The notes under the pieces were generated by a model, which worked only from the letters and a program-made list of their open reading frames with translations, was not told the DNA's origin and did not search any database. Positions 4,429-36,350 of a stretch of DNA of 61,893 nt are shown in pieces; positions within the stretch are counted from its first letter, which is position 1, and every line of letters begins with the position of its first letter. Origin of the DNA: an uncultured Candidatus Saccharibacteria bacterium (GTDB taxonomy: Bacteria; Patescibacteriota; Minisyncoccia; Phycocordibacterales; Phycocordibacteraceae); NCBI GenBank assembly GCA_964349555.1, contig CAYGGK010000003.1, forward strand, positions 1 through 61,893. The letters run 5' to 3'. Made by a program: the position numbers and the translations under genes.

Positions 4429-4484
4429 CCCCGACTTATGGAGAGCCCCGCTCCCACGAGTCGGGGCTTTCTATTTTCAGTCAG
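4427..4484 (+). terminator. 58-nt 3' module (hairpin AGCCCCGACT...AGTCGGGGCT followed by TTTCTATTTT), copy 1
   Basis: Arms at 4427-4436 and 4459-4468 followed by a T-rich run. Identical to 5304-5361. Confidence 0.6.
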
Positions 4485-4519
4485 TGAAATGAGTGAAGTC
4501 AGACTTCACTCATTTCACT
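4483..4519. repeat. perfect 18-bp inverted repeat AGTGAAATGAGTGAAGTC / GACTTCACTCATTTCACT
   Basis: Arms at 4483-4500 and 4502-4519. It lies between cassette 1's terminator and cassette 2's promoter. Confidence 0.8.
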
Positions 4520-5365: not shown

Positions 5366-5394
5366 GCAATACCGAAGTTAAACTTCGGTATTGC
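5366..5394. repeat. perfect 14-bp inverted repeat GCAATACCGAAGTT / AACTTCGGTATTGC
   Basis: Arms at 5366-5379 and 5381-5394. It lies between convergent genes. Confidence 0.75.
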
Positions 5395-8292: not shown

Positions 8293-8982
8293 ATGCCTGA
8301 TTTCCAAACATTCGCAAAAAAAATCGATACCCCATTCCATACTCTCAATCTCTTGATTGAAGCGTTGACGCACCGCTCATATTTAAACGAGCATCGCGAC
8401 TATACGGGCTCTCACAACGAGCGTCTTGAGTTTCTTGGCGACGCGGTGCTGGAGCTCGCGATAACCGATTTCCTTTTTAAAAAATTTCCAGCGAAACCTG
8501 AGGGCGAGCTTACTGCCTATCGTGCCGCGCTGGTCAACACAGTGTCGCTCGCCGAGAGCGCGCAAGCACTCGGTATTAACGAGTATTTACTGCTTTCTCG
8601 GGGTGAGGCGAAGGATGTCGGCCGCGCGCGCGACGTTATTCTCGCAAACGCGTTTGAGGCGATTGTCGGCGCGATATACCTTGACTCCGGGTTCGCCTCC
8701 GCTGAAGCGTTTATTTCAAAAAATTTGTATGGCAAAATAGACGACGTTATCACGAAGCGCTCCTATCAAGACGCGAAGAGTCGCTTTCAGGAAATAGCGC
8801 AGGAGAAGCGCGGAACGACCCCGTCGTACGAAACGCTCTCAGAAATCGGCCCCGATCATAATAAGCGTTTTACCGTTGGCGTTTTTATCGGTGTCGAAGA
8901 AATCGCGCGCGGAGAGGGCGAGTCAAAACAAGAGGCCGAACAATCGGCGGCACAAAGTGCGCTGGTATCCATGGGATGGTGA
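8293..8982 (+). CDS. rnc: ribonuclease III
   Basis: Has the NERLEFLGDAVL catalytic signature and a C-terminal dsRBD (GPDHNKRFTV...GEGESKQEAEQSAA). Confidence 0.9.
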   Translation: MPDFQTFAKKIDTPFHTLNLLIEALTHRSYLNEHRDYTGSHNERLEFLGDAVLELAITDFLFKKFPAKPEGELTAYRAALVNTVSLAESAQALGINEYLLLSRGEAKDVGRARDVILANAFEAIVGAIYLDSGFASAEAFISKNLYGKIDDVITKRSYQDAKSRFQEIAQEKRGTTPSYETLSEIGPDHNKRFTVGVFIGVEEIARGEGESKQEAEQSAAQSALVSMGW

Positions 8983-31633: not shown

Positions 31634-33691
31634 ATGTCGAGTAATTTCAAACTTAACCTACCGTTCCAGCCCGCGGGAGATCAGCCGAAGGCAATACGAG
31701 CACTCGCACAAGGACTTAAAAAAAATTTGCGGCATCAAACGCTCTTTGGCGTGACCGGTTCGGGCAAGACTTTTACCATCGCGAACGTTATTGCAAAGAA
31801 CGATATGCCAACGCTCGTTCTCGCGCACAATAAGACGCTTGCCGCCCAGCTTGCGCAGGAGTATCGGGAGTTTTTCCCCGAGAATGCCGTGCACTACTTT
31901 GTCTCCTATTACGATTACTACCAGCCGGAGGCGTATCTGGCGCACTCGGATACGTATATAGAGAAGGAAGCGATGATTAACGCCGAGATAGACCGCCTGC
32001 GCCACGCGGCGACGCAGGCGCTTCTCACGCGCAAGGACGTCATCATCGTCGCCTCGGTCTCCGCCATCTACGGCCTCGGCTCGCCGGAAGAATATGAAAA
32101 GGTACATATAAAACTCGCCGTGGGAGCGCCAGAGGCGAGGAGTTCGCTCATACGAAAACTAATCAGTATCCACTTTGAGCGGACGAACGCCGACGTGAAT
32201 CCCGGGCAGTTTCGCGCTGTCGGCAACTCGCTTGAGTTCATGCCAGTCAACGAACGTTCACTGTATCGCGTGACCTTTTCTGCCGGAGACGACAGCGTCA
32301 TTGAGCATATCGACCAGCTTGATCCGGTTTCGCGCGCGAAGCGCGCAGAACCAAAGACAGTTTTCGTCTTTCCGGCCAAACACTTTATTACGAGCGAAAA
32401 TGAGCGCGCCCGCGCAATGATTGACATAAAACTTGAACTGGAAGAACAGCTCGCCAAGTTCAAACGGGAAGAGAAGCCTCTAGAGGCGGAGCGGCTGAAA
32501 CGCCGCACGCACTACGACTTGGCACTCATCAGAGAAGTCGGATACACCAGCGGCATTGAAAATTATTCTCGTCATTTTGACGGAAGAAAGCCGGGCGAGC
32601 CGCCCTTCACACTTCTTTCATACTTTCCGAAAAATTTTCTGACGGTCATAGACGAGTCGCATGTCACCGTCCCGCAGATAGGCGGCATGTACGCGGGTGA
32701 TAAGTCGCGTAAGGACGCCCTCATTGAACACGGCTTTCGCCTCCCGTCGGCGCGCGACAATCGCCCCCTTCGGTTTGAAGAATTCGAGAGCCGCGTTGGG
32801 AAAGTCATTTACACGAGTGCGACACCGGGGCCATATGAACGCGCTCATTCGGAACAGATAGTCGAGCAAGTAATCCGTCCGACTGGTCTCATAGATCCCG
32901 AGCTCACCGTGCGTCCCGTTTCCGAAGGCGCAGAAATGAAAGGTTTCGTAAACCCTTCATTTGATGAAGGGTTTACGAAACCAAAATACCGAGGACAGAT
33001 TGCGGATTTTATCTCTGAAGCAGAGACGGTTATTAAGCGCGGAGGGAGAGCGCTCGCGACGACACTGACGAAACGAATGGCCGAAGACCTCTCGACGTTT
33101 CTGCGCGAGAAGGGAATGAAGGCCGAATACTTGCATTCCGACGTAAAAACGATTGACCGTATCGATATCCTTACTAATTTTCGCAAAGGCAAGTTTGATA
33201 TTCTCATCGGGGTGAACTTGCTTCGTGAAGGCCTTGACCTGCCGGAGGTTGAGCTCGTCGGCATCTTGGATGCTGACAAGGAAGGATTTCTGCGGAGCGA
33301 AACATCGCTCATTCAGACAATCGGACGAGCGGCACGCAACGTGCTCGGTCGCGTGATTCTCTACGCCGATACGATGACTGGGTCGCTTGAGAGGGCGATA
33401 AGCGAGACAAATCGTCGCCGTACCGTACAAATGGCGTATAACAAAAAACACCGCATCACGCCGAAGACCATCAAGAAAGAAATTCACGATATCGCGGCGT
33501 CTATGCGCACCGAGCATGAGCGCACGATTGACGAGCTTCTTGTTCTGGACACTCTTGCGTATAAGAATAATCCGAAAGCATTCATAAAGCGAAAGAAAGA
33601 AGAGATGAAAGAAGCGGTTGAGCAGTTAGATTTTGAAACAGCCGCGCTCATACGTGATGAACTATATAAGCTGGAGGGCGCGAAGTCGTGA
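31634..33691 (+). CDS. uvrB: excinuclease ABC subunit B
   Basis: Has PAGDQPKAI, the helicase motifs GVTGSGKT and DESH, and a C-terminal UVR domain (FETAALIRDEL). Confidence 0.95.
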   Translation: MSSNFKLNLPFQPAGDQPKAIRALAQGLKKNLRHQTLFGVTGSGKTFTIANVIAKNDMPTLVLAHNKTLAAQLAQEYREFFPENAVHYFVSYYDYYQPEAYLAHSDTYIEKEAMINAEIDRLRHAATQALLTRKDVIIVASVSAIYGLGSPEEYEKVHIKLAVGAPEARSSLIRKLISIHFERTNADVNPGQFRAVGNSLEFMPVNERSLYRVTFSAGDDSVIEHIDQLDPVSRAKRAEPKTVFVFPAKHFITSENERARAMIDIKLELEEQLAKFKREEKPLEAERLKRRTHYDLALIREVGYTSGIENYSRHFDGRKPGEPPFTLLSYFPKNFLTVIDESHVTVPQIGGMYAGDKSRKDALIEHGFRLPSARDNRPLRFEEFESRVGKVIYTSATPGPYERAHSEQIVEQVIRPTGLIDPELTVRPVSEGAEMKGFVNPSFDEGFTKPKYRGQIADFISEAETVIKRGGRALATTLTKRMAEDLSTFLREKGMKAEYLHSDVKTIDRIDILTNFRKGKFDILIGVNLLREGLDLPEVELVGILDADKEGFLRSETSLIQTIGRAARNVLGRVILYADTMTGSLERAISETNRRRTVQMAYNKKHRITPKTIKKEIHDIAASMRTEHERTIDELLVLDTLAYKNNPKAFIKRKKEEMKEAVEQLDFETAALIRDELYKLEGAKS
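32942..32982. repeat. 41-nt perfect hairpin (19-bp arms, 3-nt loop) in frame inside uvrB
   Basis: GGTTTCGTAAACCCTTCAT-TTG-ATGAAGGGTTTACGAAACC was checked base by base. It encodes GFVNPSFDEGFTKP. Confidence 0.9.
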
Positions 33692-35185: not shown

Positions 35186-36124
35186 ATGCAAAAACAACAA
35201 TTCGCGGCAACAGCCTTCGTCCTCAGCGCCCTTCTCGCCTTCGCTTCTGTCGCGGCCGCCTGGACAGGTCCAACCGCCACCCCTCCGGGCAACAACACTC
35301 CCGCGCCGTTAAACGTGAGCAACGCTGGGCAGGAAAAGGTGGGCGGCCTGTTGTTAAATACGGGAGGGACAGCGGCAAGCTCGGGGTTAATTGTCTCAAA
35401 CGGCAGAGTCGGCATCGGAGTAGCAAGTCCGACGCAGAAGCTTGATGTTGCCGGAACGATCAAAATGACCGGATTTAAGCTCGGGATCTCAGCCACCGCC
35501 GGTCATGTCTTAACCGCCGACGCTTCAGGTGTCGGAACTTGGCAAGCGGCATCCGGTGGCGGAGGGGGAGGTAGCGGCGCGGGGTTCTCAATGCGAGTTT
35601 TTGATTCCGCTAACACCCCTACTGGTAGTGGCACATGGACAAAGCCAGCGGGAGTAAGAACAATTAAAGTAACTGTTATTGGCGGAGGAGGTTCGGCCCA
35701 GTCTGACGCTTCGGGATCGGGACGTCAAAGCGGAGGTGGCGGCGGTATTTGCGTTAAAGTGATTGATGTAACTGCTATTGACACCATTCCTGTTACAGTT
35801 GGTCTTACCAACACTGCGCTAAACAGCGATGGTAAAACAAGCTCTTTTGGCGGCTGCACTTCCACAGGAGGAAAAAGGGGACAGGTAGGAGTAGGAGCAT
35901 CATCAGGTGGTATACCGGGCTTCGGTAGCGGTGGGGATTTGAATGGTTATGGTGGCTTGGGAGACGAAGAGTACGATACCCATAGCTCTGGTGGTGGCGG
36001 GGGAGCCGGTTTTTTCGGTTACGGTAAAGGTGGAAATTTCAACGCTTTAAATGACGGGGCTGCAATTGTAAATGTCCACTCCAAAGGTACAGGTGGTGCT
36101 GTCATTGTCGAGGAATACAGGTAG
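35186..36124 (+). CDS. secreted glycine-rich, tail-fibre-like protein
   Basis: Has a signal peptide, then the motif WTGPTATPPGNNTPAPLNVS...QEKVGGL, then IGVASPTQKLDVAGTIK...GHVLTADASGVGTWQ, then a Gly-rich domain (GGGGSAQ...GGGGGAGFFGYGKGG). Confidence 0.6.
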   Translation: MQKQQFAATAFVLSALLAFASVAAAWTGPTATPPGNNTPAPLNVSNAGQEKVGGLLLNTGGTAASSGLIVSNGRVGIGVASPTQKLDVAGTIKMTGFKLGISATAGHVLTADASGVGTWQAASGGGGGGSGAGFSMRVFDSANTPTGSGTWTKPAGVRTIKVTVIGGGGSAQSDASGSGRQSGGGGGICVKVIDVTAIDTIPVTVGLTNTALNSDGKTSSFGGCTSTGGKRGQVGVGASSGGIPGFGSGGDLNGYGGLGDEEYDTHSSGGGGGAGFFGYGKGGNFNALNDGAAIVNVHSKGTGGAVIVEEYR

Positions 36125-36176: not shown

Positions 36177-36223
36177 GAAATTGCATAAAAACAAACAAGG
36201 ATTAACCTTGTTCCGTTTCAAGT

Positions 36224-36253
36224 CAACAATTCTTGCTATAGCAAGAATTGTTG
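36224..36253. repeat. perfect 13-bp inverted repeat CAACAATTCTTGC-TATA-GCAAGAATTGTTG
   Basis: Read directly; intergenic. Confidence 0.8.
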
Positions 36254-36302
36254 ACAACCCTGACCCCATTTATTCTTTATTCGAGCGGAAGACCACCCTT
36301 AA

Positions 36303-36333
36303 CCCCACTTGGAAGCTTAGCTTCCAAGTGGGG
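36303..36333. repeat. perfect 15-bp palindrome CCCCACTTGGAAGCT-T-AGCTTCCAAGTGGGG
   Basis: Read directly. It lies 18 nt downstream of the stop of the minus-strand gene 36351..36626 and is probably its terminator. Confidence 0.8.
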
Positions 36334-36350
36334 TACGGCTCCCACTGTTT

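Follow-up and report, generated by a model that had tools for sequence, protein, structure and literature searches.

A perfect hairpin in frame in uvrB of a Candidatus Kaiserbacteria genome is very probably part of a palindromic repeat and transposase system with copies mostly inside genes

The window analysed here is the whole 61,893-nucleotide (nt) stretch of contig CAYGGK010000003.1 (C3), one of the 34 contigs of a 673,648-bp genome (G000) of a Candidatus Kaiserbacteria bacterium in the Candidate Phyla Radiation (CPR)/Patescibacteria, and a perfect hairpin was found in its uvrB gene. This hairpin is very probably a REPIN, an inverted doublet of repetitive extragenic palindromic (REP) sequences, belonging to a system of REPs and a REP-associated tyrosine transposase (RAYT) whose copies are located mostly inside genes. 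The hairpin (window 32942-32982), GGTTTCGTAAACCCTTCAT-TTG-ATGAAGGGTTTACGAAACC, has arms complementary at 19/19 positions around TTG and lies in frame with uvrB, as the first-pass annotation had claimed and as the sequence, the open reading frame (ORF) and Pfam bear out. Its 41 nt code for GFVNPSFDEGFTKP within a UvrB protein of 685 amino acids (aa) that is complete by Pfam (UvrB, UvrB_inter, Helicase_C, ResIII and UVR) and matches the solved Bacillus structure 2FDC with E = 3e-229. The gene had also been called essential, which overstated its role: uvrB, a repair gene, is not essential in the strict sense. The RNA fold of the stem is at -30.4 kcal/mol, compared with -9.9 +/- 2.7 in 200 shuffles (z = -7.6), and the chance expectation of the 19-mer arm in the window is 0.01 occurrences. 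The hairpin is far beyond chance.

The hairpin had been placed within an extra stretch of about 23 residues, and this length held against Bacillus UvrB structures (2FDC and others), relative to which residues 430-452 (23 aa) are extra. The HMMER alignment to 2FDC breaks at the insert, no Bacillus residues between T427 and K428 matching 430-452. Compared with CPR relatives that have an empty site, the mobile part is shorter, 51 nt or 17 aa, and the remaining 6 extra residues are common to CPR UvrB proteins. The 51-nt insert reads as MKGFVNPSFDEGFTKPK and is located between the RPTGLxDP...VRP segment and the start of the C-terminal part that matches Helicase_C. The identical UvrB protein, insert included, was observed on 5 contigs of public assemblies, one of which (105 kb, assembled with MEGAHIT) was retrieved and was identical in DNA across 4058 nt. 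No strain-level filled or empty alleles of the G000 uvrB were found in the search with this region, in which the nearest of 5.8 billion proteins was 84% identical. An AlphaFold model of UvrB from 40 sequences (predicted local distance difference test score, pLDDT, 52) drew the insert as coil and was too poor for use.

The hairpin is composed of a 25-nt palindromic unit, ATGAARGGTTT-CGT/ACG-AAACCYTTCAT, that recurs in the genome. A genome search with the 19-mer arm, as the first-pass annotation had proposed, gave 10 matches in G000 at up to 3 mismatches and 0 for the reversed control pattern. One arm match, at C1:34992, was weak and within the range of chance, and was rejected as the native N-terminus of ValRS. 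The unit is present at 7 loci on three contigs (Table 1), so that a short palindrome occurs at several unlinked loci, as REPs do, and in uvrB, tsaD and miaA it forms inverted doublets with a short spacer that make one long hairpin, as REPINs do. In the uvrB doublet, the left unit is an exact reverse complement of the unit overlapping the RAYT stop codon, and the right unit has diverged in its outer 6 nt, AAAATA replacing TTTCAT; the outer pairs are the least conserved at orthologous uvrB sites as well. All 4 copies away from the transposase gene are in frame in genes (uvrB, tsaD, miaA and folD). Two of the three frames of the doublet contain stops on both strands, and the sole open frame encodes KGFVNPS(F/S)(D/N)EGFTKPF, with little difference between the two orientations, and is the one used by uvrB, tsaD and miaA.

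The remaining three units are located at an ORF of 227 aa on contig C1, one 14-40 nt before its ATG, one overlapping its stop codon and itself supplying the TGA, and an imperfect one in frame at codons 51-58, encoding VRDFVNPS. A Y1 transposase gene is flanked here by its own REP, which is the arrangement of a RAYT. The only family matches of the protein were NCBIfam NF047646, REP-associated tyrosine transposase (E = 2.6e-8), and Pfam Y1_Tnp, IS200-like (E = 1e-4). Among the aligned homologues of the genus, NF047646 was matched by 14/14 (best 1.9e-13) and Y1_Tnp by 12/14 (best 1.3e-10), with no other families. A profile search of the PDB with the homologue alignment ranked the E. coli TnpA-REP structure 4ER8 first (E = 0.006), with the ISDra2 transposases following weakly; the 4ER8 alignment spans the HxH motif (NHYHLL) and the tyrosine motif Y-x3-NP (YLHLNP), both of which are invariant in the family. 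In the G000 protein, the two histidines are H78 and H80 and the tyrosine is Y138. The PDB search with the single transposase sequence returned chance matches only. A large protein collection held 3,722 homologues at E <= 1e-5, some of them named 'transposase' by their sources and coming from Candidatus Kaiserbacteria, Paceibacterota or Minisyncoccota, and several with precomputed PF01797. We conclude from these comparisons that the protein is probably a distant member of the Y1/RAYT superfamily. A genome-wide search of G000 found this gene and three distant paralogues (~30-34% identity), and no second copy of a gene-carrying unit. The first-pass annotation had proposed one palindrome-spreading process that also strikes genes, and a REP/REPIN family tied to a RAYT-type Y1 transposase is what we found.

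The association between palindrome and transposase is also present in relatives, which are a sample of the genus with several incomplete assemblies. Of the 60 other same-genus genomes sampled, 37 contained transposase homologues (38/61 with G000); G000 has four of them, and single genomes have as many as 10. The gene was fetched from 20 orthologous loci (51-82% identity), most of which carry one perfect palindrome just before its start and another at the stop. The flanking palindrome differs between genomes and changes along with the transposase protein (Table 1), and the unit ends ATG...CAT are the only invariant part.

At least 9/20 orthologues have a third palindrome inside the gene, at about codons 46-62. 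The in-frame REP of the G000 gene (C1:136790-136814, VRDFVNPS) has counterparts at the orthologous loci L041, L047-L051, L053, L055 and L057; the internal REP is absent in the distant paralogues and changes in step with the flanking REPs. It may serve self-regulation, or it may be another tolerated landing site.

Larger REP populations were observed in other genomes of the genus. In G057, the GGACATCGTAAGTCC family, with 34 matches when both strands are counted, flanks two RAYT paralogues and is also found in uvrB, tsaD and miaA; at least 14/18 other fetched loci are inside long ORFs, and the REP-bearing ORFs include GluRS, AlaRS, DnaG, PheRS-beta, transketolase, a GT1 glycosyltransferase and TGT.

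At the G057 loci L087, L090, L096 and L097, one host gene holds several REP-derived peptides of different families, such as TDIVSP, GLTKSLDTGTECKDFVSP and DEGFRKP in LeuRS, and MSGRTTSRH and VGLPMSHMGDERFTRPF in TGT, with UvrA likewise and Dus with GHRMSSFEIGHPMS. In G104, a variant of the G000-type unit, GAGGGGTTTCGTAAACCCCTC, has 37 matches on many contigs of a 0.6-Mb genome, often in close pairs or arrays; this is a local burst, the other genomes with the type showing 1-9 matches.

Table 1 Coordinates of the uvrB insert, the REP units of G000, the transposase gene and further palindromes. Coordinates with no prefix are those of the window; C numbers are contigs of G000.
Feature	Location	Strand	Sequence or basis
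uvrB, 685 aa, intact, host gene of the insert	31634..33691	+	ORF; Pfam; 2FDC match
Perfect hairpin, 41 nt, 19-bp stem, 3-nt loop	32942..32982	+	Letters read; RNA fold
REPIN, 51-nt in-frame insert, 17 codons, M435-K451	32936..32986	+	Empty-site relatives
Left REP unit, 25 nt	32936..32960	+	ATGAAAGGTTTCGTAAACCCTTCAT; reverse complement of C1:136260-136284
TTG spacer, loop of the long hairpin	32961..32963	+	Same spacer in the miaA doublet
Right inverted REP unit, partial, first 19 nt intact	32964..32982	+	Comparison with the unit
Peptide stretch of the UvrB insert			GFVNPSFDEGFTK
Inverted doublet in uvrB, 19-bp stem	C3:32936-32986		In frame
Inverted doublet in tsaD, 23+2+23 = 48 nt	C1:35464-35511		In frame; Pfam TsaD 2e-78
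Inverted doublet in miaA, 24+3+24 = 51 nt, perfect palindrome	C1:75996-76046		In frame; Pfam IPPT 1e-64
Single unit in folD, between its two Pfam domains	C12:4242-4266		In frame
Three single units before, inside and at the stop codon of the transposase ORF	contig C1		
Putative HUH/Y1 transposase gene, 227 aa	C1:136284-136964	-	NF047646 and Y1_Tnp matches
Palindrome at transposase orthologue	G042		ATGAAGGGTTT-CGT-
Palindrome at transposase orthologue	G047		ATGATGGATTT-CGT-
Palindrome at transposase orthologue	G068		ATGAAAGACCTC-A-
Palindrome at transposase orthologue	G005		CCCATGTCGGGACGT-CGT-
Palindrome at transposase orthologue	G040		ATGTGGGACTT-ACG-
Palindrome at transposase orthologue	G041		AAGTTAGGACAC-CCA-
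Two-arm insert peptides in UvrB relatives			MMGFVNPSSDDGFTKP, MYDLRGPTTDVGPRRS, MSDLRSPTSDVGLRKS, MKDLGGPSSDEGPPRS, MSDITCPTSDVGHVMS
Hairpin of the second REP family, core GTGAAGTC-A-GACTTCAC	4483..4519	.	Core common with the second-paralogue palindromes
GC-rich palindrome copies	C7:15878-15907, C10:14617-14646, C1:51908-51935, C2:20075-20102, C2:59884-59911, C5:8316-8343		

Comparison of UvrB orthologues, another check that the first-pass annotation had called for, showed both empty and filled sites. The genes compared came from 22 genomes of the genus, G000 among them, and from 11 genomes of other families in the order. The RPTGLxDP and GQ(I/V)xDF anchors are 93 nt apart in G000, as against 42 nt in nine genomes of the genus and in 9/11 from other families; the difference of 51 nt equals one full doublet in length. 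The site has no insert in 11/22 same-genus genomes, and in ten others the insert at this position is 12 nt or longer; 8/10 of these contain a near-perfect hairpin of quite different sequence. A relative encoding the same peptide with no self-complementarity, the case that the annotation had set against its own claim, was not seen. Empty and differing sites were also observed for the other doublets: the miaA site is empty in 4/4 relatives examined (93 nt vs 135 nt), and the tsaD site carries differing hairpins in G047, G013, G034 and G057. The empty miaA site of the four relatives, together with the perfect 24-bp arms of the G000 copy, suggests that this copy was inserted recently in the lineage of G000. 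The divergence of the outer six positions on the right makes the uvrB copy look older.

The pattern at the uvrB site extends beyond the genomes sampled. Among the closest 120 UvrB proteins in a large collection, 19 were of empty-site length, and many others contained inserts of 15-21 residues with a two-arm peptide pattern (Table 1). All uvrB-site inserts keep the frame and contain no stops, and on these grounds ribosomal bypass or excision of the insert was judged unlikely. When the filled or empty state was placed on a UvrB tree built with the site masked, no fewer than 10 changes were required, and a tree grouping the 11 filled same-genus alleles, a group defined after the tree was seen, was rejected (difference in log-likelihood, delta lnL, 182; approximately unbiased test, p-AU 6e-59). 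The filled alleles share the left flank CCNGTNTCNGARGG (Pro-Val-Ser-Glu-Gly, with Ser encoded by TCN), and where an empty-site allele has Ser there, as three do, its codon is AGC. Two readings are possible: either an old filled allele has been exchanged among species through local homologous recombination and lost here and there without a scar, or a preferred target has received insertions repeatedly. Sister genomes such as G057 and G047 have unrelated inserts at the same uvrB codon. The uvrB site appears to be an old, shared landing place.

We then considered whether the stem is maintained, since the first-pass annotation had argued that such a hairpin would be recent or maintained. DNA was fetched for eight UvrB relatives, and homologous REPINs from NCBI, JGI and ENA genomes and metagenomes were cut in register and aligned, giving in-register 51-nt doublets with different stems in nine genomes or contigs. 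Of the 25 pairs of the long hairpin, 12 had changed on both sides and 0 on one side alone, and the inner 19 pairs were almost always paired. The covariation score was 0.50, compared with 0.16 +/- 0.03 in shuffled alignments (0/500 reached 0.50) and 0.04-0.12 when the partners were slid by 1-3 columns. No G-T/G-U type pairs were found in the aligned uvrB stems, and the loops of the units (CGT, ACG and variants) pair mutually in 9/9 orthologous uvrB REPINs, as expected for a unit and its inverted copy. The absence of G-T/G-U pairs and the mutual pairing of the loops argue for complementarity at the DNA level and not for selection on an RNA fold. Several stem types at the uvrB site resemble REPs that flank transposase orthologues in the genus (such as the G047, G068, G040/G057 and G045 types), and the uvrB palindromes of G013, G018, G012, G009 and G007 do not adjoin the best RAYT orthologue of those genomes. 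From the nine in-register REPINs with compensatory arm changes, the hairpin is maintained at the DNA level, so that this half of the earlier alternative stands and a merely recent origin does not.

These comparisons are consistent with a mechanism in which the 227-aa HUH/Y1 transposase, by analogy with E. coli TnpA-REP and IS200/IS605 enzymes, would act on REP hairpins in single-stranded DNA. Recognition would be followed by cutting and rejoining, and REP doublets would in this way be spread or exchanged. In a genome of 0.67 Mb, copies would persist mostly where harm is small, that is, in genes, in the stop-free frame and at tolerant junctions. The 51 nt in uvrB are probably translated, because the frames are intact at every insert, and the 2FDC alignment and the Pfam domains suggest that the peptide is tolerated at the junction before the Helicase_C-matching part of UvrB. 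The resident uvrB copy seems to be renewed from, or exchanged with, the REP population of each genome instead of decaying, because point mutation cannot change the inserts yet keep both arms perfect. Such renewal might proceed by transposase-mediated replacement or by gene conversion, and an enzyme-mediated exchange is plausible because cleavage and strand transfer between REPs have been reported for TnpA-REP in vitro (PMC3333891).

Several observations weigh against this interpretation. The transposase protein scores 33.9 bits against NF047646, below the equivalog cut-off of 80 bits, as do all 14 homologues, and its Pfam Y1_Tnp score of 22.9 is just under the 23-bit cut-off. The AlphaFold model of the transposase, based on a 22-sequence alignment, has a pLDDT of 45 and is too poor for fold comparison. 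The three REPs at the G000 transposase gene share one loop orientation, whereas classical RAYTs have inverted flanking REPs, an arrangement that is present in several of the orthologues. The uvrB palindrome of G013 and G018 was found nowhere else in those genomes, whose assemblies are incomplete. The copy number of 7 loci is small against the hundreds in Pseudomonas or E. coli. Mobility of the REPINs is proposed from their distribution, and the way in which a copy at a fixed site would be renewed is a proposal as well.

Other explanations were weighed against the same evidence. An unlikely one is that the REPINs at fixed positions in housekeeping genes, and the one within the transposase gene, do more than survive and belong to a functioning system at the level of the host. 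The RAYT would then act on hairpins inside genes, and selection on that function would keep the stems perfect at orthologous sites. If this were true, possible roles would include tuning the expression or copy repair of host genes, self-regulation of the RAYT through its internal REP, and exchange of gene segments between related cells.

It is decidedly unlikely that the hairpins are host-selected structures, such as ribosome-pausing stems, RNase III/mRNA-stability sites or protein-binding sites, with the transposase-like gene domesticated or a bystander and mobility having no present role. A perfect stem does persist at one codon position across many species, at the border of the two HMMER-aligned halves of UvrB, the window encodes an RNase III, and it has been argued that REPIN-RAYT systems are long-lived, are passed on vertically and may benefit the host (PMC5581495; bioRxiv 10.1101/2021.07.10.451892). 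However, selection at the RNA level would tolerate G-U pairs, and no pair changed on one side only. The sequence, and not only the fold, is common to unlinked, unrelated genes and the transposase flanks, and an insert is missing from 11/22 same-genus uvrB sites and from the miaA site of 4/4 relatives examined, with at least 10 flips between the filled and empty state on the uvrB tree.

An origin in place by template switching or snap-back synthesis, with no transposase involved and with convergent similarity between loci, is highly improbable. It would fit arms that stay perfect while their sequence drifts between species, and a genome with 132 perfect hairpins against 1-5 when shuffled, but convergence cannot account for one 25-nt unit recurring identically at unlinked loci, the length steps between filled and empty sites are clean (51 nt and 42 nt), and in many genomes the unit stands on both sides of a Y1 transposase gene and varies together with it. 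Template switching may nevertheless help to keep the arms perfect once a REPIN is inserted. An assembly or polishing artefact is hardly credible, for even though chimeric reads or assembler errors can create palindromes, the exact UvrB protein recurs on the 5 public contigs, the 105-kb contig of another assembly is identical in DNA over the 4058 nt compared, the reading frame remains open, and homologous in-register REPINs occupy the uvrB site in independent genomes and metagenomes.

Other hairpins of G000 were of several kinds, and the view that those of the window form a single family with the uvrB hairpin did not hold. The genome-wide count compared above with shuffled sequence took in perfect hairpins whose stems reach 10 bp or more and whose loops do not exceed 6 nt. 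Many of those between genes have the A-run, stem and T-run of an ordinary terminator in appearance. At least two other transposase paralogues of G000 have their own palindromes nearby: ACTAGTGAAGTC-N-GACTTCACTAGT is found on both sides of the second RAYT paralogue (C1:215017-215559), at C1:214856-214882 and C1:215606-215638, and four copies of TTGTTCAAGTCTGACTTGAACAA adjoin the third (C2:5986-6393). The genome has several REP families, which accompany several transposase paralogues.

The four TTGTTCAAGTCTGACTTGAACAA-type hairpins, at C2:6451-6739, are interleaved with terminator-like hairpins and resemble an array of bacterial interspersed mosaic elements (BIMEs). Within the window, 4483-4519 is a perfect 18-bp hairpin, AGTGAAATGAGTGAAGTC-A-GACTTCACTCATTTCACT, and 36222-36255, 36302-36334 and 5366-5394 are perfect 17-, 16- and 14-bp hairpins with no T-run, which sit after the ORF ending at 36124 and at 5366. 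Long ORFs of G000 also contain a GC-rich palindrome family, CCGCC(G/A)GAGGCGG-NN-CCGCCTC(C/T)GGCGG (Table 1). The RNase III gene of the window is at 8311-8964 (TIGR02191, 251 bits, above the cut-off), and perfect 19-24-bp stems in mRNAs would be candidate substrates of the enzyme.

The system is of interest for several reasons. The inserts provide natural material for studying the extent to which insertions at domain borders are tolerated in proteins, the way in which ribosomes and polymerases handle perfect stems of 19-24 bp, and how a repeat at a fixed site stays in step with its transposase. In CPR metagenomes, such inserts also inflate gene and protein annotation and make it confusing. A full-text search of the literature found no paper that connects Patescibacteria with REP/RAYT or with in-frame palindromes.

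Among known systems, the IS200/IS605 family (IS608, ISDra2) has its enzyme in the same superfamily, Pfam Y1_Tnp (the PDB profile search matched ISDra2 weakly), and likewise has sub-terminal hairpins on either side of the gene. Scar-free excision is known for this family and would fit the clean empty sites. The difference is that short hairpins are dispersed here, and not a gene-carrying unit. The Rickettsia palindromic elements (RPEs) are similar in being in-frame palindromes in unrelated housekeeping genes of a small genome, adding extra peptide segments at tolerant positions, although translation of the element described here is deduced. They are set apart by their described size, about 100-150 bp (PMC10969869) against 25-51 nt here, and by an unrelated host lineage, the host here being a CPR bacterium; the same review names no transposase for RPEs (PMC10969869), whereas the element described here has an evident cognate gene.

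The closest likeness is to REP/BIME or REPIN systems with a RAYT (TnpA-REP), as described in E. coli, Pseudomonas and Stenotrophomonas (PMC2817692, PMC3116915, PMC3333891, PMC3479197, PMC5581495). Shared features are a short palindromic unit, of 25 nt here, inverted doublets with a short spacer that form one long hairpin and fit the REPIN definition (PMC3116915), singlets that resemble decayed or partial doublets, and an HUH/Y1 transposase gene bracketed by its unit, which co-varies with the transposase across genomes; the REP-transposase-REP arrangement is that of a REPtron (PMC3333891, PMC2817692). The differences are that the copies are mostly in frame inside protein-coding genes and not extragenic as in known systems, that the populations are tiny (7 loci in G000), and that each genome of 0.5-0.8 Mb has several transposase paralogues (4 here, up to 10) and not a single copy. 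A REP is also present in frame within the transposase gene itself, and the stems are perfect, whereas E. coli TnpA-REP requires a stem mismatch and a 5' GTAG tag (PMC3333891). The host phylum differs as well, being Patescibacteria, although RAYT groups have also been reported outside Proteobacteria, in other classes (PMC5581495). REP/REPIN-RAYT systems have been defined as extragenic and described mainly in Proteobacteria; here such a system would reside in an ultra-small CPR genome with scant intergenic room, its hairpins living in genes as probably translated loops. It would join two classes that have been treated apart, REPINs with a known transposase and the in-frame palindromes of the Rickettsia type.

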